Assembly (NCBI GenBank): GCA_021160245.1
Contig: JAGHCW010000197.1
Coordinates: 1-12,641, forward strand
Direction of reading: 5' to 3'
DNA: 12,641 bases
Origin: a bacterium
GTDB lineage: Bacteria > B130-G9
Shown here piece after piece: positions 293-12,399 of this stretch. A program made the position numbers and the translations under genes. Numbering within the stretch: position 1 is the first letter of the stretch; each line of letters opens with the position of its first letter. Under the pieces are notes generated by a model. It was given only the letters and a program-made list of their open reading frames with translations, searched no databases and had not been told where the DNA came from.

Positions 293-1369
293 TTGAGAGG
301 AATGCAGGTGGAAACGCTTAGGGAGCAGATCGAGGAAAGAGAGGGTCAATTTCTCTGCGATAAGGCTATGCTGAGCCGTAACAGCCGAGGCCGAAAGCGA
401 GACGAGTCGGAATGCGACATTCGGACCTGTTTCCAGCGTGACAGGGACAGGATCATCCACAGCAAGTCGTTCAGGCGATTGATGCACAAGACCCAAGTAT
501 TCTTAAAGCCTCGAGATGACCATTACCGAACTAGGTTGACACACACGCTCGAGGTCGGTCAGATAGCGCGGACAATATCACGGGCGCTGCGACTGAACGA
601 GGACCTGGTTGAGGCGATTGCCATGGGTCACGATCTCGGTCACACGCCATTTGGACACTCGGGAGAGGCAGCGCTGCAAGAGGTTCATCCGGGGGGGTTT
701 GAGCATCCGGAGCAATCGCTGAGGGTTGTGGACTGTCTTGAGCGGCAGGGCAAAGGCCTGAACCTCACGTTTGAGGTTCGCGATGGAATCGTCAGGCACT
801 CAAAGGGCTTATCGGACCTTATCCCTAGTGACAAGAGCGGACTGCCTCGAACGCTTGAGGGTCAGATTGTTAGGATATCGGACATCATCGCTTACGTAAA
901 TCACGACATCGACGACGCCATACGTGCCGGACTTCTGACGCCGGAGTCCATCCCCAGTGAGCTCAGCTCCGTAATTGGAACAACTCACTCCGGGAGAATC
1001 GGCGTGATGGTCAATGATGTTATCCGGGCAACCTGGGACGTTGGAATGGAGTTCATCGCCATGAGCGGCAGAATATGTGAGGCAACGGAGCGGCTGCGCG
1101 CATTTCTGCATCGGGAGGTCTATAACAACCCAACGTCCGTTGAGCAGTTCGACAAGGCCAAGAGGCTTTTGAAGCGGCTTTATCAATACTACCTCGAGCA
1201 TTTGCATCTTGTGCCTACGCCACGATTTCAGCCCAAATCGGAGAATGCTAATCAGATTGTTTGCGACTATATAGCTGGGATGACGGACGGGTTTGCCATA
1301 TTGTGTTATGAGGATGTTTTTATACCGAGACCGTGGGCACGAGCGGAGGGCGGAGATGTTTATACCTGA
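293..1369 (+). CDS. dgt: dGTP triphosphohydrolase-like HD-domain phosphohydrolase (Dgt family)
   Basis: Shows the Dgt-family signature: FQRDRDRIIHSKSFRRLMHKTQVF, DHYRTRLTHTLEVGQIAR and the HD metal motif GHDLGHTPFGHSGE. The ORF opens with TTG at 293; ATG at 302 and GTG at 308 are alternative starts, and GAGG at 297-300 could serve as an RBS. The 3' end overlaps the next gene by 14 nt. Confidence 0.85.
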   Translation: MRGMQVETLREQIEEREGQFLCDKAMLSRNSRGRKRDESECDIRTCFQRDRDRIIHSKSFRRLMHKTQVFLKPRDDHYRTRLTHTLEVGQIARTISRALRLNEDLVEAIAMGHDLGHTPFGHSGEAALQEVHPGGFEHPEQSLRVVDCLERQGKGLNLTFEVRDGIVRHSKGLSDLIPSDKSGLPRTLEGQIVRISDIIAYVNHDIDDAIRAGLLTPESIPSELSSVIGTTHSGRIGVMVNDVIRATWDVGMEFIAMSGRICEATERLRAFLHREVYNNPTSVEQFDKAKRLLKRLYQYYLEHLHLVPTPRFQPKSENANQIVCDYIAGMTDGFAILCYEDVFIPRPWARAEGGDVYT

Positions 1370-2225
1370 GATTGACCTTCATCTTCATTCCAACGCCTCA
1401 GACGGGACCGAGACCCCTTCGGTTCTGGTTCGCATGGCGAGTGAGCTCGGGCTTGCGGCAATATCGCTCACCGACCATGACACCATTGAGGGCGTCGCTG
1501 AGGCCATGAGCGAGGGTGAGCGACTGGGCGTCGAGGTCATTCCCGGCATTGAGCTCAATTCCTTCTTCATGGGGCGTCCCGTTCATATTCTGGGCCTCCT
1601 TATTGACCCGGCGAGTGATTCCCTGAGAGATTTTGCGGCGAGGCGGCGCGAGGCGCGCCTCGTGAGGGCGAGGGAGATGATTCGAAGGCTTGCCGAGGCG
1701 GGGAAGCCAATCGATATGGACTTGGTGCTTAAGACAGCCGAGGGGGGCATAGTCGGCCGAGTGCATATCGCCCGTGCCCTTGTTCAGCGCGGCGCCGCTG
1801 CATCCGTGTCCGAGGCTTTCAAGAGCTACGTGAGACGAGGCTCGCCATACTATGTGTCGCTGGACAAACCGACCCCCGAGCAGGTGATCGCTGTGATACA
1901 AGATGCCGGGGGTATTGCCGCGCTTGCGCATCCGATCTTCATCCCAGATGATGTTCTGACTTCCCTGCTTCCGATCATCCTCAGCGCCGGCATCGGCGCG
2001 GTAGAGGTGCTTTGCGGCCTGAACAAGGACAAGGCTCAGGATATAGAAAAGCACTTGCAGCGGTGCTCGGAGATGTCTGCGTTTGCAGCGGAGCACAACC
2101 TTGCGCGATGCGGAGGCTCCGATTACCACGGGCTCTCGGTGAAGGGCATCCGGCTGGGTTCCGCTCATGTGCCAATTCAGTTTCTCGAGGAACTGAAGGA
2201 GAAGCACCGTGCGATGCAAGGATGA
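1356..2225 (+). CDS. PHP-family metal-dependent phosphoesterase, TrpH/YciV (RNase AM)-like 5'-3' exonuclease family
   Basis: PHP motifs IDLHLHSNASDG and ISLTDHDT are present, with later ALAHP and GGSDYHG metal ligands. ATG at 1356 is preceded by GGAGG at 1345-1349. The ORF-track start at 1293 would overlap dgt by 77 nt, so 1356 is preferred. The stop TGA at 2223-2225 overlaps the next ATG as ATGA. Confidence 0.8.
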   Translation: MFIPEIDLHLHSNASDGTETPSVLVRMASELGLAAISLTDHDTIEGVAEAMSEGERLGVEVIPGIELNSFFMGRPVHILGLLIDPASDSLRDFAARRREARLVRAREMIRRLAEAGKPIDMDLVLKTAEGGIVGRVHIARALVQRGAAASVSEAFKSYVRRGSPYYVSLDKPTPEQVIAVIQDAGGIAALAHPIFIPDDVLTSLLPIILSAGIGAVEVLCGLNKDKAQDIEKHLQRCSEMSAFAAEHNLARCGGSDYHGLSVKGIRLGSAHVPIQFLEELKEKHRAMQG

Positions 2226-3418
2226 CACCAGTTTCACAGAACCGCGATGGCGATACTGACATCTTGGATGGCTCGATGAACCACGAGCTTGAGGCCATTG
2301 TGGTCGGCGCGGGCCCGGCGGGAGGCATCTGCGCTCTTGAGCTCGCGTCCGCCGGAATCGATGTGGCTCTGCTCGAGAAAGAGGCCCTCCCGCGCTTTAA
2401 GCTATGCGCCGGTGGCTTCAGCGAGAGGGCACAAGATTTGCTGGGGCTGGATATCTCAGACGCCATCACAAACAAGGTCGAGGCGGTGGATTTCCTGGGC
2501 AAACATCGCTCTCGTCTCCGCAAGGATTCCACCAGCATCTTCGGCTCAATAGTCGACCGGAAACTCTTCGACGCGATCATTGTGGACGAGGCGCGCCTCG
2601 CTGGATGCGCCGTTTATGACGGTGCGGGGGCCCACTCGATTGAGCGTGAGGGTGGTTTATTCCGGGTGGCCACGCAAGACGGGCGCACGTTCACGAGCAA
2701 GGCCCTTGTGGGGGCGGACGGTTCCCGCTCAGTTGTCCGGCGCCATCTTGGCTTGCCTAATTTGAGGCGCCGAGGCGTAACCGTGATGTTTGAGCTCTTG
2801 CCTAATACGGATGTGAACCTTGAGAGCACAACGATCAAGCTCGATTTCGGCGTGGTTGATCACGGATATATGTGGATATTTCCGTTCGGCAAGGGCCTAT
2901 CTGTTGGAGCTGTAACCTCAAATAACTACTTGCCCGGCGCGAGGGCGAAGGTCTTGGAGTACATTGAGGACGACGAGGCGCTCTCATCGGGTTTCGATGT
3001 AAAATTTCTGGGTGGGTGTGTGGTTCCATATTGGACAGGCGAGCGTCGTGTCGGAGACGGGGGTTGCCTTCTTGCGGGCGATGCCGCCGGCCTTGTGGAC
3101 GCCTTCATGGGGGAGGGCTTGAGCTGGGCCATCTTGAGCGGTCGTATCGCGGCTGAAGCCATCATCACGCAGCGTGGGGCCGGGCGTGGGCCGCTTGGCC
3201 TACATGCGAGATACGCCACCGCGTTGAGACGCGAAGTCCTGCCCGAGCTGAGAAAGGCCTATTGGTTCGGGCGCCTCGCCTACAAGTATAAAGAGCCCAT
3301 TTTCAAACTCGTTTCGAGACTGAGCTTCGATGGTGATGTCTTCACTAAGATGACGAGGAGCAGGGTCTCCTATAGGGCACTCATCGCTCGAATGTTCAGG
3401 CAGTTGATCCGCTTTTAG
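2222..3418 (+). CDS. FAD-dependent oxidoreductase, geranylgeranyl reductase family
   Basis: Shows the Rossmann motif IVVGAGPAGG and the KLCAGG motif (GGR-type conserved Cys), plus GADGSRSVVRRHLG and GDAAGLVDAFMGEGLSWAILSG FAD-binding motifs. ATG at 2222 overlaps the upstream stop as ATGA. An alternative start at 2276 (MNHELEAIVVGAGPAGG) gives a more typical distance to the Rossmann motif. The ORF-track start at 2012 is rejected. Confidence 0.8.
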   Translation: MTPVSQNRDGDTDILDGSMNHELEAIVVGAGPAGGICALELASAGIDVALLEKEALPRFKLCAGGFSERAQDLLGLDISDAITNKVEAVDFLGKHRSRLRKDSTSIFGSIVDRKLFDAIIVDEARLAGCAVYDGAGAHSIEREGGLFRVATQDGRTFTSKALVGADGSRSVVRRHLGLPNLRRRGVTVMFELLPNTDVNLESTTIKLDFGVVDHGYMWIFPFGKGLSVGAVTSNNYLPGARAKVLEYIEDDEALSSGFDVKFLGGCVVPYWTGERRVGDGGCLLAGDAAGLVDAFMGEGLSWAILSGRIAAEAIITQRGAGRGPLGLHARYATALRREVLPELRKAYWFGRLAYKYKEPIFKLVSRLSFDGDVFTKMTRSRVSYRALIARMFRQLIRF

Positions 3419-3476: not shown

Positions 3477-5792
3477 ATGACAGGTCTCGGTCCATTCATT
3501 GAGAAGATGATGACCTCAAAAGAGGCCGAGCGATGTATCGCCGCGAGCTGTGAGATTGCAGGGAAGGCCGCCCGATATGTCTCAGTTGCGCCGCCTTTGC
3601 CGGACCCACTCCTCCGGGGCCTCTCTGCTATCGGGATTGAGAAGTTGTACTCCCACCAGGCGGCGGCTATTGAGTCGGTGCGTCAAGGCCGGGACATTGT
3701 CGTTGTAACTTCGACGGCCAGCGGCAAATCGCTTTGCTACAATTTACCTATTCTCGAATCGCTGCTTTTCGACCCTTCCGGCAAGGCCGTTCTCATGTTC
3801 CCGACCAAGGCGCTCTCTTATGACCAGCAGGCGGCGCTGCAAGGTCTGGTTGCATCGGAACCCGAGCTGTCTGGGCGGGTCGTGTCTGGGGTATATGATG
3901 GCGATACGCCGAGCCACGCGCGAAGGAAAGTGCGAGAGAGGGCCAACGTTCTCATCACAAACCCGGACATGCTTCATCAGGGCATTCTGCCACATCATTC
4001 TCGCTGGGCGGGCCTCTTCTCGGGACTTAGGTTCGTCGTTTTGGATGAACTGCACACCTATCGGGGCATCTTCGGCTCGAATGTCGCGAATGTTATTCGA
4101 AGGCTACAACGAATTTGTGAACAATACGGCGCCAAGCCTCAGTTTATTTGCTGTTCGGCAACGATCAACAATCCCAAAGAACTTGCATCGAGGCTTACGG
4201 GCCGTCCGGTTGACCTGATAGACGACGATGGCGCGCCGCAGAGCAAAAGGCATTTCATTATATGGAACGCGCCCCCCGTTGACGCTAACGGACTGATCAG
4301 GCCGACCCGGGCGGGTCAGGCGGAGCGGCTAATATCCGAACTAATGTCCGCTGATGTGCAGACAATCGCCTTCACAAGAACCCGTATGGGTGCTGAGATT
4401 CTCTCGAAGAACATAAAGGCTCGCCTTGAGAAGCAAAAGAGTCCCCTTGCGGACCGCGTTAAGCCCTATCGAGGAGGCTACCTAGCCGAGAAGAGGCGCA
4501 GGACTGAGTCGGACCTGATGAAGCGGAAGCTGCTCGCGGTCGTAAGTACCTCGGCACTTCAGCTTGGGGTTGACATAGGGTCGCTGCAAGGGTGCGTCAT
4601 AGTCGGTTACCCCGGCACCATAGCCGGAACATGGCAGCAGGCGGGGCGTGCCGGACGAAAGCAGGGCGCGTCTCTTGCGATACTCGTGGCGGGGGCAGAC
4701 CCAGTCGATCAATACATCGCCCAGAACCCCTCCTACATCTTCGACCGGAACCCGGAGGATGCCGTCATAGACCCGATGAATCCATACATTCTCACCCAGC
4801 ATATATGTTGTGCCGCTATGGAGAGACCACTTAGGGAGGAGGACGAGGCCTTCTTTGGCCCTATGTTCAGGTCGATTGTGAAACTCCTCTCGGACTGTCA
4901 GAAACTAAAACGTATCGGCGAGACCTGGTTCTGGTCAACTGATGAATACCCATCCGGGCAGGCCGGGCTTCGAACCGTGAGCGGCAAGAAACTCACAATA
5001 CAGGCTTGGGATATGACCCATTCCGGCGACGTGGTGGGCGAGATTGACGCCGCCAGCGTTCCGTTCATAGCGCATCCCGAGGCAGTCTATCTGCATGAGG
5101 GTGAGACGTTCCTTGTGGCACATGTCGATTATGGCAGAGGCATCGTGACGGTTCAGCAGGAAGATGTCGGATATTTCACGACGCCAGTTGTCAGCACGTC
5201 GATAGACCTTAAGGAAACATACGAAAAAAAAGAGCTGCGCGGCCTCACGATCGCCTGGACGTCGGTATCCGTGACGTCTCAGACGACAGGATACATGAGG
5301 CGCCGGTTCTCGACGTTTGAGAATCTCGGGACATACGAGGTCTCGCTTGAGCCCGTTATCCTTGACACTGTGGCGACCTACATTATGATCGATGAGAGCT
5401 TGAGGGATGCTCTTGCGCTTGAGAATCTGCCGGCGGTTGGTGGCATTGTGGGTTTGAAGAATCTACTCTCCGTTGTGGTTCCACTGATTGCTATGTGTGA
5501 CAGGCTCGACATCGGGATTGTGCTTGATTCCGAGAACTTGGGCGAGCAGGCTATCTTCGTATTCGACAGGTTTGACGGGGGACTGGGCTTCTCCGAGAGA
5601 GTTATGGACAGGATTGAGGAGGTTCTCGCGATGTGCCTCAAGGTGGTGTGTGGATGCCCCTGCAAGAGGGGGTGCCCATCCTGTGTCGGGATCGCGGACC
5701 CATCGACCGAGTCGCCTGTGCTTCCAGAAAGTATGCAGTCAAAAAGAAAGAGCGCCACGAGGAGATTGCTGGAGCTTGCGCTGGATGAATAG
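3477..5792 (+). CDS. Superfamily-2 DEAD/DEAH-box helicase with C-terminal DUF1998 (MrfA_Zn-binding) domain, MrfA/YprA family
   Basis: Walker A is TSTASGKS, motif II is VLDELH, motif VI is QQAGRAGR. The C-terminal CLKVVCGCPCKRGCPSCVG matches the CxCxxGCPxC Cys4 signature of DUF1998. ATG at 3477 has a weak GGGGAT RBS; an alternative start lies at the MMTSKEAE methionines. Confidence 0.9.
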   Translation: MTGLGPFIEKMMTSKEAERCIAASCEIAGKAARYVSVAPPLPDPLLRGLSAIGIEKLYSHQAAAIESVRQGRDIVVVTSTASGKSLCYNLPILESLLFDPSGKAVLMFPTKALSYDQQAALQGLVASEPELSGRVVSGVYDGDTPSHARRKVRERANVLITNPDMLHQGILPHHSRWAGLFSGLRFVVLDELHTYRGIFGSNVANVIRRLQRICEQYGAKPQFICCSATINNPKELASRLTGRPVDLIDDDGAPQSKRHFIIWNAPPVDANGLIRPTRAGQAERLISELMSADVQTIAFTRTRMGAEILSKNIKARLEKQKSPLADRVKPYRGGYLAEKRRRTESDLMKRKLLAVVSTSALQLGVDIGSLQGCVIVGYPGTIAGTWQQAGRAGRKQGASLAILVAGADPVDQYIAQNPSYIFDRNPEDAVIDPMNPYILTQHICCAAMERPLREEDEAFFGPMFRSIVKLLSDCQKLKRIGETWFWSTDEYPSGQAGLRTVSGKKLTIQAWDMTHSGDVVGEIDAASVPFIAHPEAVYLHEGETFLVAHVDYGRGIVTVQQEDVGYFTTPVVSTSIDLKETYEKKELRGLTIAWTSVSVTSQTTGYMRRRFSTFENLGTYEVSLEPVILDTVATYIMIDESLRDALALENLPAVGGIVGLKNLLSVVVPLIAMCDRLDIGIVLDSENLGEQAIFVFDRFDGGLGFSERVMDRIEEVLAMCLKVVCGCPCKRGCPSCVGIADPSTESPVLPESMQSKRKSATRRLLELALDE

Positions 5793-5796
5793 ATAG

Positions 5797-6360
5797 GTGA
5801 ACAAGTTGGATAGACCCACAAGTATCGGGCTCCTTGAGCTCAACAGCGTCGCCATTGGGATTAAAGCCTGCGACGTCATGCTAAAGGCGGCGTTTGTGAA
5901 GCTCTTGCGGGCTACCACAATCTGCCCCGGCAAATACGTGATCATGGTCTATGGCGGTGTGGACGCAGTCAGCGCCTCGGTCCGAGATGGCCGCGACGCT
6001 GGCGGGGAAAACGTCATCGATCACCTGATCATCCCGAATATCCACTCGTCCGTAATCCCGGCCATTGCTGCCGTAACCGAGGTTCAAGAGGTGGATGCGG
6101 TCGGCGTCATAGAGACCTTCTCGGCCGCATCCGCCATCGTCGCGGGGGACCTTGCGGCAAAAGCGGCGGACGTTCAGCTGATAGAGGTCAGGCTCGCAAA
6201 TGGCCTGGGCGGAAAGTCGTTCGTCGTTCTGACGGGTGATGTGTCGGCCGTTCAGGCTGCTATAGCTGCTGGTTCCGCCCATCCAAAGGAGCAGGGACTA
6301 TTCGTTCAAAGCGTCGTCATCCCGTCGCCTCACGAAGAGCTCAAGGATGCGCTGCTATAA
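5797..6360 (+). CDS. Bacterial microcompartment tandem-domain shell protein (BMC-T), PduT-like
   Basis: Two BMC domains are present: SIGLLELNSVAIGIKACDVMLKAAFVKLL...TTICPGKY and AVGVIETFSAASAIVAGDLAAKAADVQLIEV...GDVSAVQAAIAAGS...VVIPSPHEEL. These are collinear with PduT (AIGILELTSIA...KTICPGKF / AVGIVETWSVA...VIPRPHEAM). Cys43 (codon TGC at 5923-5925) aligns with the PduT Fe-S ligand Cys38. The start is GTG at 5797, 4 nt after the helicase stop; TTG at 5806 with AGGTGA 6 nt upstream is an alternative. Confidence 0.85.
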   Translation: MNKLDRPTSIGLLELNSVAIGIKACDVMLKAAFVKLLRATTICPGKYVIMVYGGVDAVSASVRDGRDAGGENVIDHLIIPNIHSSVIPAIAAVTEVQEVDAVGVIETFSAASAIVAGDLAAKAADVQLIEVRLANGLGGKSFVVLTGDVSAVQAAIAAGSAHPKEQGLFVQSVVIPSPHEELKDALL

Positions 6361-6440: not shown

Positions 6441-7883
6441 TCAATCGGCGCCCGGCTGCTGCGCCTCAATGGTCTTCTGCTCGCCCGAGGCGTCTTGATA
6501 CGGCTCTATGCCCAGACCTTCCATGATCACCTCAATTAGGGCGATGGCTTTGTGTTCCAGCGGCAGCACTTCCTTGAGCACCTCGGCCTGCTTGTTGCGC
6601 ATTTCCTGTGTCCACGCCTCATAGTTAACGGTGAAAGGAGACGGGATGTTTTCCTCACCCTCCTTTAACAGCTCGACCTGCTGGGCGTAGATGTCGGCCA
6701 GCCGCAGGACACTTTCTCGCATGCAGCCAAACACGCCGGCGTATGTCTTCAAAAACTTGACCGCCTCCCCTCTGTCGGCTATGAAGCGCTGATATATCCA
6801 GTGGTTACCGAGTAATATGTTATCGTGTTCTTGTGTGGAGATAGAGGCGATTGAGGCCTCATTGCCGAGGAAATCTATCCAATGCTCAAGAGCGCTTGGC
6901 CCCGAATAATACGTGTCAAACTTCTTCGTTGTTCCCGCCTTGTAGGCTATCGCGAGCGATTGACGGACGGCCTCCTCGCCGGAGAGCGACTCGGATTTCT
7001 CCCCGAGGACCGCGGCCACCCACGGCGTCTTCTCAGCGATGTTGTAGTCATTCATCTCGCCATCAAAGCAGGAACGGCAGAAAAAGTCGCGCTTGCCGTT
7101 CTGGTAGCCGGTGATTATACCCCACTCGGGGACATATACGATGTCGATGCCGATAACGGGCAGGCCCCTGTCTATGCTCTTGATGATCTGCTGCCTCATC
7201 TCATCCTCGGTTAAGGCCTTCGGATCTACAGAATTCTCGCCTATCATCTCAAACCACTCTACTTCGCGCCCAAGCGCCTTAAGCAACTGCTTGGTGCAAT
7301 TGAGGCCCACACCGGGGTCCGGTGAGCTTGGGCATAGCTGCTCGTGAACTTGCAGTCTGAAGGCGCTGCCGGAGATGCCCATTAAGTAGTTGTAGTTGTG
7401 CTGCTCGCCGAAATGGGCCAGAACGCGCCTCGCACAAGCTATGAAGCTGCTTAGCTCGTTGCTCTCCATTGAGAGCGGCTCAATCCCCTCGATTATCTTC
7501 GCGTCCGGCATTCGATGGACCTTCGTCACTGTCTTGAGAGATACGCCGATCCTGCCGGGCGCAAGCGTGATGTCGATCTTCTCTTCGCCGCGTCGAATGA
7601 CAAGGCCGATGTCAGCCTTTCCGCCGGCGGCCTCGATGGCCGTGTGCAGGTCGAAGAGGCTTTCTATGGGCTTGCCGTCATACATAAGAATAACGTCGCC
7701 TGGCTTCAAGCCCTTGCTATCCGCCTGGCTTCTCGGGACCAATTGCTCGACCTCAATGTAACGCTCGACGGACTTCGGCGGCGCTGTGACCGCGGTCGTC
7801 TCCTGAACCTGATTACCTGCACAGCCCCAAAGAACCGCGACAGAAAGCAGCAATATGCAAAATAAACTCGCTTGCCTCATCAT
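6441..7883 (-). CDS. Secreted/lipoprotein with N-terminal PDZ domain and large uncharacterised C-terminal domain
   Basis: The signal peptide MMRQASLFCILLLSVAVLWGCAG has a possible lipobox Cys. A PDZ-like segment follows (GLKPGDVILMYDGKPIESLFDLHTAIEAAGGKADIGLVIRRGEEKIDITLAP). The ATG start has GAGGAG 7 nt upstream on the - strand. The roughly 330-aa C-terminal region has no family I can name from sequence alone. Confidence 0.7.
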   Translation of the reverse strand: MMRQASLFCILLLSVAVLWGCAGNQVQETTAVTAPPKSVERYIEVEQLVPRSQADSKGLKPGDVILMYDGKPIESLFDLHTAIEAAGGKADIGLVIRRGEEKIDITLAPGRIGVSLKTVTKVHRMPDAKIIEGIEPLSMESNELSSFIACARRVLAHFGEQHNYNYLMGISGSAFRLQVHEQLCPSSPDPGVGLNCTKQLLKALGREVEWFEMIGENSVDPKALTEDEMRQQIIKSIDRGLPVIGIDIVYVPEWGIITGYQNGKRDFFCRSCFDGEMNDYNIAEKTPWVAAVLGEKSESLSGEEAVRQSLAIAYKAGTTKKFDTYYSGPSALEHWIDFLGNEASIASISTQEHDNILLGNHWIYQRFIADRGEAVKFLKTYAGVFGCMRESVLRLADIYAQQVELLKEGEENIPSPFTVNYEAWTQEMRNKQAEVLKEVLPLEHKAIALIEVIMEGLGIEPYQDASGEQKTIEAQQPGAD

Positions 7884-8089
7884 TTTTCATCTCCTCAATG
7901 TTGAAAAAGGTATATAGATTGATGTCATCAACAGGGCTAAGACAGCCCTTTCAGGGGTGAGGGCCTCTCATGCCTCGTGATCCGTGGGTGGTACCCGCAG
8001 CTACTGTTGTTGTTCTCCTTCAGAGAACCTAAGGACATTCATAATACACAACCTATCTATCGAGCCAGGCACTGGCGCATTATCTCCAC

Positions 8090-8716
8090 TCACTGCGCTA
8101 GCGCTTGCGCAAACTGGTTTACAACCTCAAAATTGCGCCCGAAATCGAGAATAAGAAATCCTGAGACCGGTGTGCTGACGGCAGTGATCTCATGCGAACC
8201 ATTTTCCAGTTTATCTATCTTGAGCGTAACTCGGGATGCGTAGAAGGGCCTTGTGAACCCCTCAATACAGCCAACCTCTCGATCCACTACTCTCAACCTG
8301 ACGCCCAGGGACGAGACCGCCGAGAGAACATCGTCGAAGACCTGTTCAGGGCTGTGCTCCGGCCCGCGATGAACCACGCTGGATTGCGAGAGAAAAAGGG
8401 CTCTGCCATGAGGCGCGCCGTATTGCTTGCTCAGAGCGAGGCAGCGGTTCTTATCGTGCTTGACGACTGGCAATAAAATGGCCAGCGATATGATTGCGGA
8501 GACGAAACCGAATAGGATACCCATAACAACGACATCGCCAAATGAATATATGGGCAGCACCAGGGGATGGAGCGAGTCCTCCCGTATGATGTTTGGGCCG
8601 ACATAGAGCATGGCCACGATGACTCCTGCGCAGAAGAAGACGGAGACCGTAATCGTGATGCTCGCTACGAGTTTCGCGTATTGTCTCTTCATTCTGGTCT
8701 GAACGTGTGCTTTCAC
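8090..8716 (-). CDS. Small membrane protein with 2 TM helices and C-terminal soluble domain, unknown function
   Basis: Two hydrophobic helices are visible (ITITVSVFFCAGVIVAMLYV and VVVMGILFGFVSAIISLAILLPVV), followed by a roughly 120-aa soluble domain. The start is either GTG at 8716, overlapping the upstream stop as GTGA, or ATG at 8692. No clear Shine-Dalgarno precedes either, which fits translational coupling to the upstream FGE-domain gene. Confidence 0.6.
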   Translation of the reverse strand: MKAHVQTRMKRQYAKLVASITITVSVFFCAGVIVAMLYVGPNIIREDSLHPLVLPIYSFGDVVVMGILFGFVSAIISLAILLPVVKHDKNRCLALSKQYGAPHGRALFLSQSSVVHRGPEHSPEQVFDDVLSAVSSLGVRLRVVDREVGCIEGFTRPFYASRVTLKIDKLENGSHEITAVSTPVSGFLILDFGRNFEVVNQFAQALAQ

Positions 8717-9375
8717 TTGATCTCAATAGCCGGCGCTTTGCAGCAGCGAGCCCCATTGAAGACGTATCTGACAGATTTATCTAGCGTATAAGAGCTTCTG
8801 CAAGTCGAAAAACGGCCGCTAAGCCAACTTCCGCCGAAGATGACGGCGCTCTCCTTGTCGCTTGTCGTCCACTCTGAGACATTTCCGCTCATGTCGAAAA
8901 CGCCATAGCCACTAACGCAACCTGGAAACGTTCCCGACGGGAAGGCTTTGCTGCCGTTCATCATCCACTCCTGCTCCGTGTTGCAGGTCTCTGGAAAGTA
9001 GGAGACTCCATAAGGATAGGCGGTCTGTGCCGGGCCCTGGCACGCCGATTGCCATTCGCCGCCTGTGCAGAGCCTCTTGCCAGCCTTGAAGCAGAGCGAC
9101 TCGGCCTCGATCCAAGATATGTCGAGAATCGGCATCACTCCGATTTCATTGGGGTACTCGAAAAGATCGATGCAGAATGCCTCCTGCATCTCGCCGTCCC
9201 GGATTTTCATGGACGGAACAAGCGCCATGCCTGGGGGGCATATCAGCGATACTGTCGGAATGCGTTCCTCAAGAGTCTCGGGAGCATCCGGCGCAGCAGT
9301 TTCATCCTGTCCAAAGCCAATCATCGGTTGGCCGAAAAGGCATAGCGCGAAGCAGAATGCCAAAAAGCGTGTCAT
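8713..9375 (-). CDS. Secreted formylglycine-generating-enzyme (FGE-sulfatase/SUMF1) domain protein
   Basis: The N-terminal signal peptide is MTRFLAFCFALCLFGQPMIGFG. The hallmark FGE-sulfatase motif GVFDMSGNVSEWT is present, with flanking conserved Trp/Gly/Cys pattern and a C-terminal RCCKAP. A strong AGGAGG RBS sits about 9 nt upstream of the ATG on the - strand. Confidence 0.8.
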   Translation of the reverse strand: MTRFLAFCFALCLFGQPMIGFGQDETAAPDAPETLEERIPTVSLICPPGMALVPSMKIRDGEMQEAFCIDLFEYPNEIGVMPILDISWIEAESLCFKAGKRLCTGGEWQSACQGPAQTAYPYGVSYFPETCNTEQEWMMNGSKAFPSGTFPGCVSGYGVFDMSGNVSEWTTSDKESAVIFGGSWLSGRFSTCRSSYTLDKSVRYVFNGARCCKAPAIEIK

Positions 9376-9583
9376 GTTCGCATCCCTCCTAAGTACCGTT
9401 CTAATGTGCGCTTGAATGATTGTGAATCTAATCTCTTATATTGTGAGCTGCAAGCGCGATTACGTTACCCCCATAATCAGATTGACTGCAAAGAACATGT
9501 TGGAATAAGCGCGCTTCCTCGCTGTCCGGGGGAGTACGAGCTAAAAGGGGATCAGTCAGTGAGATGCACCAGCTGGGTGATTG

Positions 9584-9757
9584 TGGAGTGCGGAGGCTTG
9601 ACGCCGCTTTGGCTGGCCGCGGTTTGACGCGGCATCGACCTTATGTCAATTGGCGTCCGGGTCGAAAGATCGTTGTCTGAAAGGTCAAAAAGGCAATTCA
9701 TGAGAGAGTGGTGTCAAGCCACCACCAATCAAGGCGGAGTCAAGCCTCCGCACTCCA
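9584..9757. repeat. Symmetric TTGAC-core repeat element with 19-bp perfect inverted arms (MITE/REP-like or multi-site operator)
   Basis: The 19-bp arms at 9584-9602 (TGGAGTGCGGAGGCTTGAC) and 9739-9757 are exact reverse complements. Inner TTGAC and GTCAA units at 9624-9628 and 9713-9717 are each offset 26 bp from the outer ones. All four units are symmetric about the same centre near 9670.5. Two adjacent 6-bp-stem hairpins with identical TCAAGC loops lie at 9708-9725 and 9734-9751. Confidence 0.6.
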
Positions 9758-9826
9758 AAAAGCCACAGCCGCCTGCGTCAATCTGATTACTGGGGCGTTA
9801 CATTCGATAATCGATTAAGACAATGA

Positions 9827-10627
9827 CTATTTCGGCCGGAAGGTTATTGTTATGGTGCCCCATTCGACGTAGTCCTTGCCCTCCGGAAGAGATGCGAATC
9901 TCAGCGCGCGGACGTATTGGGCGGAGTAGTTGTCCAATGTGGCATCCAGTTTTCTCTCAAAGATAATTCTTGAGACCGCGCCGTCCGGCTGGACCCAGAA
10001 CTTAATGGCAACGCTCCCCGGAGTTGTGATCTCGACCTTGCTCTGCGGGGCCCTATAGACGATACTCCTTGCGGAAACGGGACCGGCAATGGCCTCAACG
10101 TTGACTGGGGACTTCCCCTTGGGGGCAGCGGAGCCTTTAGGCGCGGCGAAGTCCGGAAGACGGACACTCTCCTTTGGCTGAGCGGGCTGAAGCGACCATA
10201 AATTGTTTCGCTCCCTACCCGTGCGGCCAACGTCCCGGCTGGATGTCGCGAGCCTCGAAAGCGTCTTTTCGATCATCTCTGGCAGCCGCTTTTGAGGAAG
10301 GTCGAGCTCGTCCACTTCCAGGTTGTCATCTGCGGGAGCTGCCCGAGGACTGCGAATGAATGCGCCAAGCGGCAACTGCTGAGCGAAGGCGATTGTTGAG
10401 CTATCCAGCTCCGAGAGAAGCCTCGCCTCATCCTCTGAGGCGCCAAACGCCACCGCTTCGTAGCCCAACGCTCCATAGTCCAGCGGAAATAGGTCCACCT
10501 CGATCAGTTCTTCCATCGCTTTGTGCTTGGGAACAGCCGCCGGGACTGGGATAAGCAGAATGGCAAGCAAGTGAATGGCGACCGAGGCCAGGAGACCCCA
10601 GATGATGCAGTGTCTATCGGACGACAT
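9827..10627 (-). CDS. TonB C-terminal-domain membrane protein (energy transducer TonB family-like)
   Basis: The N-terminal TM helix is CIIWGLLASVAIHLLAILLIPVP, followed by a Pro/Ala-rich linker (AAPKGSAAPKGKSP). The C-terminal GSVAIKFWVQPDGAVSRIIFERKLDATLDNYSAQYVRALRFASLP fits the TonB_C pattern. ATG at 10627 is preferred; ATG at 10660 would overlap the upstream gene by 47 nt. The 14-nt overlap with the BMC-P gene and the absence of an SD both suggest coupling. Confidence 0.5.
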   Translation of the reverse strand: MSSDRHCIIWGLLASVAIHLLAILLIPVPAAVPKHKAMEELIEVDLFPLDYGALGYEAVAFGASEDEARLLSELDSSTIAFAQQLPLGAFIRSPRAAPADDNLEVDELDLPQKRLPEMIEKTLSRLATSSRDVGRTGRERNNLWSLQPAQPKESVRLPDFAAPKGSAAPKGKSPVNVEAIAGPVSARSIVYRAPQSKVEITTPGSVAIKFWVQPDGAVSRIIFERKLDATLDNYSAQYVRALRFASLPEGKDYVEWGTITITFRPK

Positions 10628-10880
10628 GGGTCTGGTCCACGATTCCGACGACGCACGCATCGACTGGAAGCTCGACGCCGAAGGGGTTACAAGCCTCTTT
10701 TCCAGAGACCCACAAGACGAACTCTGAGGCGCCCGCGCCGACCGAATCCAGCACGACTATTGGACTTCCGGCCGGCGTCCGATCGCTCCGCATAGGCTGC
10801 ATTAGCAGCAATCTCTTGCCGTTAAGTCGCTCGTCCTTGCGCGTCGCGACCACGTTCCCTATTATTTTGCCAAGCCTCAT
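10614..10880 (-). CDS. Bacterial microcompartment vertex protein (BMC-P, EutN/CcmL/PduN family)
   Basis: The 88-aa product MRLGKIIGNVVATRKDERLNGKRLLLMQ...VVLDSVGAGASEFVLWVSGKEA...VDACVVGIVDQTHVV is collinear with EutN (MKLAVVTGQIVCTV...AIDNIGAGTGEWVLLVSGSSAR...DLCVIGIVDEV). ATG at 10880 has a GGAGA RBS 8 nt upstream on the - strand. Confidence 0.8.
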   Translation of the reverse strand: MRLGKIIGNVVATRKDERLNGKRLLLMQPMRSDRTPAGSPIVVLDSVGAGASEFVLWVSGKEACNPFGVELPVDACVVGIVDQTHVVR

Positions 10881-11127: not shown

Positions 11128-12399
11128 ATGGCAGCAAATAGCGGTCGCGGAAGGTCTGATCTTATCGCGAAGACCGCCATTGTGACGTTGAGCGTTGCGG
11201 GCGTTCTATGTGGGTTTTACATAATTTACGAGCTGCGTTCTCTCATCTACATGATGCTCTTCGCGTCTATTATTGCGTATGCTCTAAGCCCAATCGTCGG
11301 TCGAATGGAAGACGCGGGCATAAATCGCACGCTAGGCATAATCGTCATCACCACGCTGATAACTGGCGGCATTGTCGCCTTGCTGCTTTTTGTTATCCCC
11401 ACAATACTCAGGGAGATAGCGGAGTTCTTCCAGGGGTTTCCGACCTACTTCGAGCAAGGCCGTGCATTGCTTATATCCCTCTGGGAGAGGTTCTTTGGCG
11501 AGAGCTTCCCATCCAACGTCCAGTCGTTTCTGGATACTATCGCTCCCAGTTCGGCCACGCTGAAATCCATCGCATCAAAGGCCATCAAACCTCTCGGAAC
11601 GCTTCTTGCAGGGGCATTCACCGGCGTCGTTGGATTCATCGTATGGATTGTTGGGCTTGCAATTGCCCCGGTGGTGATATTCTATCTGTTGCGTGATTTT
11701 GAGCGAATTGTGGACGGCGCGGTCGCGCTAATTCCTGTCAGCCGAAAGGAAACTGTGGTGAGTTTATTCAAAGAGATCAATGAGACGCTGGGGAATTTAA
11801 TTCGAGGCCAGCTGCTGGTTGCGCTAATTCTCTCGATTTTCTACAGCGCGGGATTCTATTTTATCGGCGTTCCTTATGCAGTACTACTCGGCTTCATATC
11901 GGGCTCTGCAAACATCATCCCCTACTTCAGCCTCGTCGTCGGTCTAATCCCCGCCATTGTGGTCGCCTCCATTCACTTCGCAAACTGGGTTGAGCCGCTC
12001 TACGTGGTCCTTCTCTTCGCAGTGGTCCAGACGCTGGAGGGTTTTGTCTTAACCCCTAAGATAGTCGGGAAAAAGGTCGGCCTGCATCCGCTTCTGATCA
12101 TCCTCGCGCTCCTCGTCGGCGCCTCGTTGGGCGGCATAGTAGGTGTGCTCCTGGCCGTGCCAAGCGCGGCTGTGTTGAAGGTAGTCGTAACGCATTTCCA
12201 TCGGAAACTGAAGGGCAGAACTGAGCAGGAGGAGGCATCGGGATCATCCATTGATGGCGAGATCACGCAAGAGCAAAGCCCTGATGCGGCTCCGCACGTC
12301 GATTCAAAGACCTCGCCGGCAATTGAGGCTCAAAAAGATGGCGAAGAGGCCCAGCAGAATGATGAGCGACAGGGCAAGGACCCTTGCCAATCATCGTAG
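11128..12399 (+). CDS. AI-2E family transporter (UPF0118/PerM-type permease)
   Basis: The protein is polytopic, with about 8 hydrophobic helices. Its conserved C-terminal core (QTLEGFVLTPKIVGKKVGLHPLLIILALLVGASLGGIVGVLLAVP) is typical of the AI-2E_transport family. ATG at 11128 has a good RBS, and the C-terminal tail is acidic/Gln-rich and disordered. Confidence 0.85.
   Translation: MAANSGRGRSDLIAKTAIVTLSVAGVLCGFYIIYELRSLIYMMLFASIIAYALSPIVGRMEDAGINRTLGIIVITTLITGGIVALLLFVIPTILREIAEFFQGFPTYFEQGRALLISLWERFFGESFPSNVQSFLDTIAPSSATLKSIASKAIKPLGTLLAGAFTGVVGFIVWIVGLAIAPVVIFYLLRDFERIVDGAVALIPVSRKETVVSLFKEINETLGNLIRGQLLVALILSIFYSAGFYFIGVPYAVLLGFISGSANIIPYFSLVVGLIPAIVVASIHFANWVEPLYVVLLFAVVQTLEGFVLTPKIVGKKVGLHPLLIILALLVGASLGGIVGVLLAVPSAAVLKVVVTHFHRKLKGRTEQEEASGSSIDGEITQEQSPDAAPHVDSKTSPAIEAQKDGEEAQQNDERQGKDPCQSS

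Follow-up and report, generated by a model that had tools for sequence, protein, structure and literature searches.

A PduT-type shell protein gene behind a helicase gene in a Coatesbacteria-like clade: a probable dispersed member of a fragmented microcompartment system

Why should a gene for a PduT-like shell protein of a microcompartment (BMC) be located directly behind a helicase gene? The question is raised by a stretch of DNA of 12,641 bp, the entire contig of a MAG, which is called the window here. In a preliminary description of the window, the open reading frame (ORF) at 5797-6360 of the forward strand was read either as a satellite shell gene of a BMC locus situated elsewhere in the genome, or as a PduT-like protein co-opted as a soluble Fe-S partner of the neighbouring helicase and flavoprotein. 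The satellite reading is the better supported of the two, because a second shell gene, for a vertex protein (BMC-P), is present in the window, the two kinds of shell gene co-occur in relatives, both are highly conserved, and fragmented shell loci have a precedent in Coatesbacteria. We put the probability at roughly 0.7 that the ORF is a dispersed shell gene of a Coatesbacteria-like clade with fragmented BMC organisation, encoding a functional PduT-type trimer that has no partnership with the helicase.

What does the ORF encode? The product has 187 aa if translation starts from the GTG at 5797, and 184 aa if it starts from the TTG at 5806 as in the public annotation (MCD6328167.1). The stop codon of the helicase gene (TAG) is located at 5790-5792, which leaves before the GTG the 4-nt gap given in the preliminary description, while the annotated TTG lies 13 nt past the same stop and is preceded by the Shine-Dalgarno-like AGGTGA. 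The choice between the two start codons is ambiguous. The Pfam profile search, which had been proposed as a check, identified two consecutive, non-permuted BMC domains (PF00936) with 150 bits against a cutoff of 24.5. The NCBIfam model TIGR02526 (eut_PduT) matches residues 9-184 with 137.2 bits, below its equivalog cutoff of 250.3, and by this score the protein is a family member and no equivalog of the enteric PduT/Eut protein. The solved structures closest in sequence are 3NWG (186 bits), followed by the PduT entries 3PAC and 3N79. Alignment with PduT needs no gaps, residues 6-179 of the query corresponding to 4-177 of 3N79, and the likeness to PduT over the whole length is therefore borne out. 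The AF2 monomer model, based on a 25-sequence alignment (mean pLDDT 94.2, pTM 0.88), shows two beta-alpha-beta-beta-alpha-beta repeats, and the top folds found by Foldseek are 3NWG (TM 0.94), 3PAC ('PduT ... with 4Fe-4S cluster binding site', TM 0.87) and 3N79 ('PduT C38S'). Judged from these profiles and this model, the ORF is a genuine tandem-BMC-domain shell protein gene of the PduT kind (BMC-T^S / BMC-T^SE), and is referred to as BMC-T below.

The PduT/BMC-T^SE proteins of known structure, that is, PduT of Salmonella and Citrobacter (3N79, 3PAC) and the Desulfitobacterium hafniense protein (3NWG), share with the window protein the non-permuted tandem PF00936 fold as well as the CPGK motif with its cysteine at C38; they have 182-204 aa, and are 42-52% identical to it with TM scores of 0.86-0.94. 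Unlike PduT, the window protein stays below the TIGR02526 cutoff, its gene has no PduS/MNdh, pdu or eut neighbour, and it ends a housekeeping array that contains a helicase. BMC-T1 of Haliangium ochraceum (Hoch_5812; 5DIH, 6N06) is also a single-layer tandem-domain trimer, which is incorporated into shell facets, with a TM score of about 0.8. However, its identity to the window protein is only about 31-33%, and its [4Fe-4S] cluster was engineered (5DII), whereas the CPGK motif of the window protein is natural.

The window BMC-T groups with thirteen protein clusters in a tight clade (71-99% identity), one of them from a 'Candidatus Coatesbacteria' MAG, and the next homologues are at most 59% identical. 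The CPGK pore motif is encoded at 5923-5934 of the forward strand, and its cysteine (codon 5923-5925; Cys43, or Cys40 in the 184-aa protein) aligns without gaps with PduT Cys38, the [4Fe-4S] ligand at the trimer pore. The equivalence previously proposed for the TTICPGK motif thus holds, and the variation of the cysteine among orthologues that had been considered as an objection was not seen, since all 25 aligned homologues, the most distant of them 51% identical, have the residue. Of 119 homologues, 117 contain a C-[PAS]-G-K motif, and CPGK itself is present in 100. In addition, 45 positions reach a conservation of 85% or more among 106 out-clade (MNdh-paired) homologues, and the 13 in-clade sequences keep 44 of these, the sole change being from A to S. 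Each domain of BMC-T also contains a D-x-x-x-K edge motif (D23/K27 and D115/K119 in the 184-aa numbering), which is invariant in all 25 sequences. According to the PduA/PduT literature the edge lysines make tile-tile contacts, and by analogy they may do so in BMC-T. The CP(G/S)K motif is the mark by which PduT homologues have been renamed BMC-T^SE, and PduS has been renamed MNdh in the same work (PMC11626177, 2024 PNAS). With TICPGK and its cysteine on C38, the window protein carries the motif of this subtype, and a [4Fe-4S] cluster may be expected in the central pore of its trimer.

Are there really no metabolosome genes nearby, as the preliminary description held? For the window, profile searches found no BMC-H and no signature BMC enzyme (aldehyde dehydrogenase, PTAC, glycyl-radical or B12 enzyme), and this part of the statement stands. 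However, a BMC-P gene had been missed. The gene is located at 10617-10880 of the reverse strand, 4.3 kb from BMC-T, and encodes an 88-aa vertex (pentamer) protein of the EutN/CcmL family (MCD6328172.1), in which PF03319 (EutN_CcmL) spans residues 1-82 with 92.6 bits against a cutoff of 25. Its 3' end is overlapped by the gene of a membrane-anchored TonB_C-like protein (9830-10660, reverse strand; PF03544 with 19 bits, below cutoff), and a gene identified by NCBIfam search as an AI-2E family transporter (11128-12399, forward strand) is divergent from it. The trio of transporter, divergent BMC-P and overlapping TonB_C-like membrane protein is conserved in the clade, the pair of BMC-P and the downstream TonB_C-like gene being kept in the loci L005-L008 and L116-L118. 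The orthologous BMC-P genes, too, are solitary, and their products are 73-77% identical. In the comparison with its neighbours, BMC-P reaches 74-75% and they reach 48-60%. Both shell genes are present in the MAG GCA_964480475.1, on separate contigs (CAYZPW010000059 and CAYZPW010000032), and they co-occur in the JGI sample 3300005098 and in the sample ERZ26661670. The nearest out-clade homologues of this BMC-P are the middle BMC-P of triplets, beside BMC-H and class II aldolase. We know of no role for BMC-P outside shells.

The other components of a microcompartment were then sought around the shell genes of the clade. About 10 kb on either side of each shell gene was inspected, and in this in-clade sequence (about 220 kb, partly redundant) phmmer searches found no BMC-H, MNdh/PduS, AldDh, PTAC, RpiB, DeoC or class II aldolase, so that a single BMC-P without BMC-H accompanies BMC-T in the sequence examined. 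No MNdh/PduS gene is present within 10 kb of BMC-T in any in-clade locus, hence the adjacency of MNdh and BMC-T^SE is found in none of them, and no in-clade MNdh could be recognised among the best 120 of about 8000 homologues when the MNdh of the nearest out-clade locus was used as the query. A cluster of signature enzyme, AldDh, PTAC, BMC-H and BMC-P, which characterises a canonical main locus of the PDU, EUT, GRM or SPU type, occurs neither in the window nor in the in-clade loci. Assignment of the gene as a PDU or EUT satellite was rejected on two grounds, the lack of B12 and eut or pdu genes and the score below the equivalog cutoff.

Then, is such a scattering of shell genes known from other bacteria? 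In PMC8217296 (Sutter et al. 2021), a locus needs one BMC-H or more and one BMC-P to count as a main locus. The FRAG BMCs of that work, which are common in candidate phyla, have their shell genes in up to six places, mostly far from the enzymes. PduS/T pairs are sometimes satellites, and the supplement describes a solitary MNdh/BMC-T-type arrangement for the ACI type. In the BMC-P tree of that work, Ca. Coatesbacteria 4484_99 is labelled 'fragmented (sat) (omitted)' and falls in an SPU4-like clade, and RBG_13_66_14 (Coatesbacteria) is labelled 'incomplete (sat) (omitted)'; the Coatesbacteria entries were left out of the final typing. Like FRAG loci, the present clade has scattered shell genes remote from recognisable BMC enzymes, with BMC-T and BMC-P each solitary in a conserved housekeeping context. 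However, a BMC-P triplet accompanied by one or two BMC-H belongs to the FRAG types as defined, whereas the clade has one BMC-P and no BMC-H in the 220 kb around its shell genes. It counts against the reading of a dispersed shell gene that a complete shell and cargo have to be assumed, and that only one BMC-P is seen where a FRAG triplet would be typical.

A second precedent is the satellite module of MNdh and BMC-T^SE (PMC11626177; ACI and PVM types), in which the gene of the Fe-S-type trimer likewise lies apart from the main BMC locus. According to PMC11626177, the module is often found at satellite loci. [quoted passage not shown] Such modules carry MNdh upstream. In our comparison, a PduS/MNdh gene (Complex1_51K, SLBB, Fer4_17 and RnfC_N domains; PF01512, PF10531, PF13534 and PF13375) is directly upstream of BMC-T in 18/18 informative out-clade loci (48-58% identity), and it is this gene that is missing from the 10 kb around BMC-T in the window clade. 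Ten of the 18 loci are compact and contain other shell genes, and signature metabolosome partners are present in the out-clade loci of L013-L027 and in L033. Seven loci from Bryobacterales are solitary MNdh/BMC-T pairs (L015, L020, L022-L024, L026 and L029), and the satellite BMC-T of Bryobacterales is 51-54% identical to the window protein. The nearest out-clade BMC-T (57-58% identity) belongs to the SPU-type L033, from an Eremiobacterota-like genome, and the tree of PMC8217296 has a Coatesbacteria BMC-P in an SPU4-like clade. Yet the genes of L033 are gathered in one compact main locus (PTAC, BMC-H, AldDh, MNdh, BMC-T, BMC-H, RpiB and DeoC), and none of these partners is found near the in-clade BMC-T. 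The window gene thus fits a described category, in which a BMC-T^SE gene stands apart from the remaining BMC genes and the shell loci of the lineage are fragmented, while the separation from MNdh and the fixed place behind a helicase gene are traits of the clade itself.

Could the missing BMC-H truly have been lost, so that a shell, or some other oligomer, consists only of BMC-T^SE trimers and BMC-P pentamers? In all the in-clade sequence examined no shell genes other than these two are present, and the label 'incomplete' of one Coatesbacteria genome in the tree of PMC8217296 would agree with this. However, that label may merely reflect the incompleteness of a MAG, the parts of PMC8217296 consulted give no natural shell type free of BMC-H, and the inspection reached about 10 kb to either side of a shell gene while fragmented loci occupy up to six locations. 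We consider such a minimal assembly improbable. The same low probability is assigned to the wider proposal that the clade keeps only the Fe-S-type trimer and one pentamer, without BMC-H, MNdh and enzymatic core, for a non-canonical role, either in an assembly of the two proteins or as a free ferredoxin-like electron carrier serving the co-transcribed array of GG-reductase-type flavoprotein and helicase.

If BMC-T is a dispersed shell gene, what is the meaning of the helicase? The gene directly upstream (3477-5792, forward strand) encodes an MrfA-like DEAD/DEAH helicase with DEAD, Helicase_C, WHD_HRQ1 and MZB/DUF1998 Zn domains, all four of which score above the Pfam cutoffs, although TIGR03817 gives 690 bits, below its cutoff of 874. 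Pfam and NCBIfam matches in the region 293-3418 of the same strand indicate an HD/HD_assoc phosphohydrolase, a PHP phosphoesterase and a flavoprotein of the geranylgeranyl (GG) reductase family, the true start of the last being near 2270; this order is repeated in L001-L004, L010 and L034. Downstream, a PDZ-domain lipoprotein-like gene (6441-7883, reverse strand), recognised by Pfam and by locus comparison, is convergent with the array and closes it in most relatives, its place being taken by ExbD/ExbB in L034. The conserved array is co-directional and consists of Thi4, GT2, GT2, HD, PHP, GG-reductase-like flavoprotein and MrfA-like helicase genes, with BMC-T as the last gene. In the relatives the helicase neighbour is not lost, as had been thought possible: it is upstream of BMC-T in 7/7 informative in-clade loci, that is, those with upstream sequence present (the window, L001/L002, L003, L004, L010, L011 and L034).

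The preliminary description had called the two genes directly coupled, which does not hold as a conserved feature, since the spacer varies from 3 nt to 2.2 kb in relatives. It measures 3-13 nt in L001 and the window, 19 nt in L003, 93 nt in L011, about 134 nt in L010 and L034, and 2.2 kb in L004, where genes for a Dam-like methyltransferase and a SacI-like endonuclease have been inserted on the same strand as the array. The spacers of L034 and L010 contain a pair of GC-rich palindromes that fold at -70 to -78 kcal/mol, and because copies occur elsewhere in these genomes the element looks like a REP or MITE-type insertion. The junction of helicase and BMC-T is not constrained. As an observation against the reading of a dispersed shell gene, it should be noted that the order of the two genes, with helicases that are 59-66% identical, outlasts usual random synteny and could reflect selection for co-expression.

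Could the coupling then be regulatory only? BMC-T would be carried on a transcript for DNA repair and nucleotide housekeeping, expressed constitutively or in response to the same stress signal, and its product would not interact physically with the helicase. The genes are co-directional and tightly packed, and the R-M genes inserted in L004 keep to the same strand. Moreover, no terminator-like site was found at the junction in the window and L034 by consensus scan, which is weak evidence. Against this reading, the same kind of scan places one promoter-like site at 5362-5389, inside the helicase gene of the window, and the strong hairpins of L034 and L010 could terminate or process a common transcript. 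Rfam and tRNA scans of the window gave no matches. Regulatory coupling as the whole explanation is, in our view, unlikely.

According to the co-option reading, the trimer takes no part in a shell and serves as a soluble Fe-S subunit with a redox or sensor function, acting on the helicase or as a ferredoxin-like donor to the flavoprotein two genes upstream. Archaeal GG reductases use ferredoxin-type donors, which lends this some plausibility, as does the order of helicase and BMC-T that is kept in all seven loci despite the divergence of the helicases. The MNdh that is upstream in every informative out-clade locus is missing here, and BMC-H and cargo genes are missing from the sequence around the shell genes. 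However, descriptions of the MZB domain in MrfA-type helicases make it a binding site for zinc, not a redox site. BMC-P co-occurs with BMC-T and is equally conserved; no family-conserved residue of BMC-T has been lost or re-fixed, the edge lysines included; and the variable spacer tolerates an R-M cassette and REP-like hairpins.

The distribution of the gene pair also speaks against co-option. Co-occurrence of PduT-like genes and DUF1998 helicases had been proposed as a check, and it is complete within the clade, but an MrfA-like helicase adjoins BMC-T in 0/18 out-clade BMC-T loci. As a control that starts from the helicase, 80 metagenome loci were collected whose helicases are 41-48% identical to that of the window, in-clade contigs not being among them; in the 65 with at least 700 nt of downstream sequence, a BMC domain, BMC-P, or the HD, PHP and flavoprotein neighbours were found in none (0/65). 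Since the adjacency is seen in 7/7 loci inside the clade and in 0/18 and 0/65 loci outside, it is a property of one clade and of neither protein family. The co-option reading is weakened by this restriction to the clade, by the variable spacing and by the foreign DNA inserted between the two genes, and we regard it as quite unlikely.

That BMC-T is a decaying remnant of a lost BMC locus, as its isolation from other BMC genes in the in-clade sequence examined might suggest, is extremely improbable and was rejected for the high conservation of the gene in its block: the ORF is intact in every relative, the family-conserved positions and the pore cysteine are kept as described above, and the identity of 71-81% is among the highest of the block, where the neighbours reach 47-76% (HD 70-76%, helicase 59-66%, flavoprotein 48-59%, PHP 54-59% and PDZ 47-58%) and only the HD protein in L004 exceeds it (75.9% vs. 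70.9%). As judged from identity relative to their neighbours, BMC-T and BMC-P both appear to be under purifying selection.

How would the product of a dispersed shell gene work? The BMC-T trimer would form a facet tile, with a [4Fe-4S] cluster ligated by its three CPGK cysteines in the central pore, so that electrons could cross the microcompartment shell there, and BMC-P would close the vertices. The trimer would be incorporated into shells whose BMC-H, MNdh and cargo genes are presumably located elsewhere in the genome, the shell genes being dispersed such that BMC-T ends a housekeeping array and BMC-P lies in the block with the AI-2E and TonB_C-like genes. The place behind the helicase gene would be inherited synteny, probably with co-transcription by read-through, and without a physical link to the helicase.

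What does the locus mean for the biology of these bacteria? The data give no support to a new partnership between a helicase and an Fe-S protein. If true, a lineage with BMC-T and BMC-P only, or the co-option of the trimer for a soluble Fe-S role, would be of far greater interest than a dispersed shell gene, though we hold each of them to be improbable, and the importance of the locus would rise only if complete genomes of the clade were to lack BMC-H and MNdh. If the reading of a dispersed shell gene is correct, the clade adds a further example to the 'fragmented' BMC organisation, and a concrete, well-conserved case in which the gene of an Fe-S-type shell trimer has been parted from its MNdh partner and has become the fixed last gene of a housekeeping array. 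Such a case may be of use for studying the co-regulation of dispersed shell genes, and for learning whether other electron donors or acceptors can serve BMC-T^SE.

The start of the BMC-T gene is ambiguous. One candidate is the GTG at 5797, 4 nt past the stop codon of the helicase gene, while the public annotation uses the TTG at 5806, which is preceded by AGGTGA and gives a protein of 184 aa; the N-termini of the in-clade homologues have the form M-x-x-R-P. A near-consensus sigma-70-like promoter match (TTGACA, a spacing of 16 nt and TATGAT; 11/12) is located at 5362-5389 on the forward strand, within the helicase coding region and about 410-440 nt 5' of the BMC-T start. Further upstream in the array, the longest ORF of the geranylgeranyl-reductase-family flavoprotein (2012-3418, forward strand, 468 aa) exceeds its homologues (382-392 aa) by about 85 aa, and its additional N-terminal part overlaps the PHP gene; the true start is probably near 2270.

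The spacer between the helicase and BMC-T genes has received insertions in some relatives. For example, in the Candidatus Coatesbacteria MAG GCA_016929465.1 (L004), an inserted gene pair separates the two (7923-9927); one gene encodes a Dam-like methyltransferase (MethyltransfD12), the other a SacI-like restriction endonuclease, and both share the strand of the array. In addition, a GC-rich palindrome, GGCGGCTC(A/G)(C/T)GAGCCGCC, was found in relatives at L034 9906-9967, L010 9900-9961 and 2002-2019, L009 3525-3588 and L035 27-44, mostly as an inverted pair that forms a hairpin with a folding energy of -70 to -78 kcal/mol. In two relatives it lies between the helicase and BMC-T genes, and there are copies at other sites in these genomes, so the palindrome appears to be a REP or MITE-type element.

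We also found redox and acyl-phosphate genes downstream of BMC-T in relatives. An RnfB-like Fe-S protein with PF04060 and several Fer4 domains is encoded 1.8 kb downstream in a single relative (L003 12371-13171); it may serve as an electron partner or be there by chance. Two different relatives (L001 16675-17602; L003 19048-20367) encode, about 9 kb downstream of BMC-T, a classical phosphotransacetylase (PTA_PTB) and an acetate kinase. These genes may be mere fermentation housekeeping, but both enzymes use acyl-phosphate, the usual metabolosome product.

On the reverse strand of the window, the BMC-P gene forms a pair (9830-10880) with a membrane-anchored TonB_C-like gene (PF03544, only 19 bits), whose start it overlaps, and an AI-2E transporter gene (11128-12399, forward strand) is divergent from BMC-P. 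This trio is kept across the clade (the window, L005-L008 and L116-L118). A TonB_C-like membrane protein is an odd operon partner for a vertex protein. In the roughly 450 nt between the FGE-sulfatase-like and TonB_C-like genes (9376-9826), no convincing gene was found, and Rfam and tRNA scans gave no match. Outside the clade, the closest BMC-P homologues belong to a very small shell locus (L030 8425-10619; L031/L032 8309-10569), which consists of a class II aldolase, one BMC-H and three BMC-P genes and is surrounded by the housekeeping genes for FtsH, PdxJ and endonuclease III.
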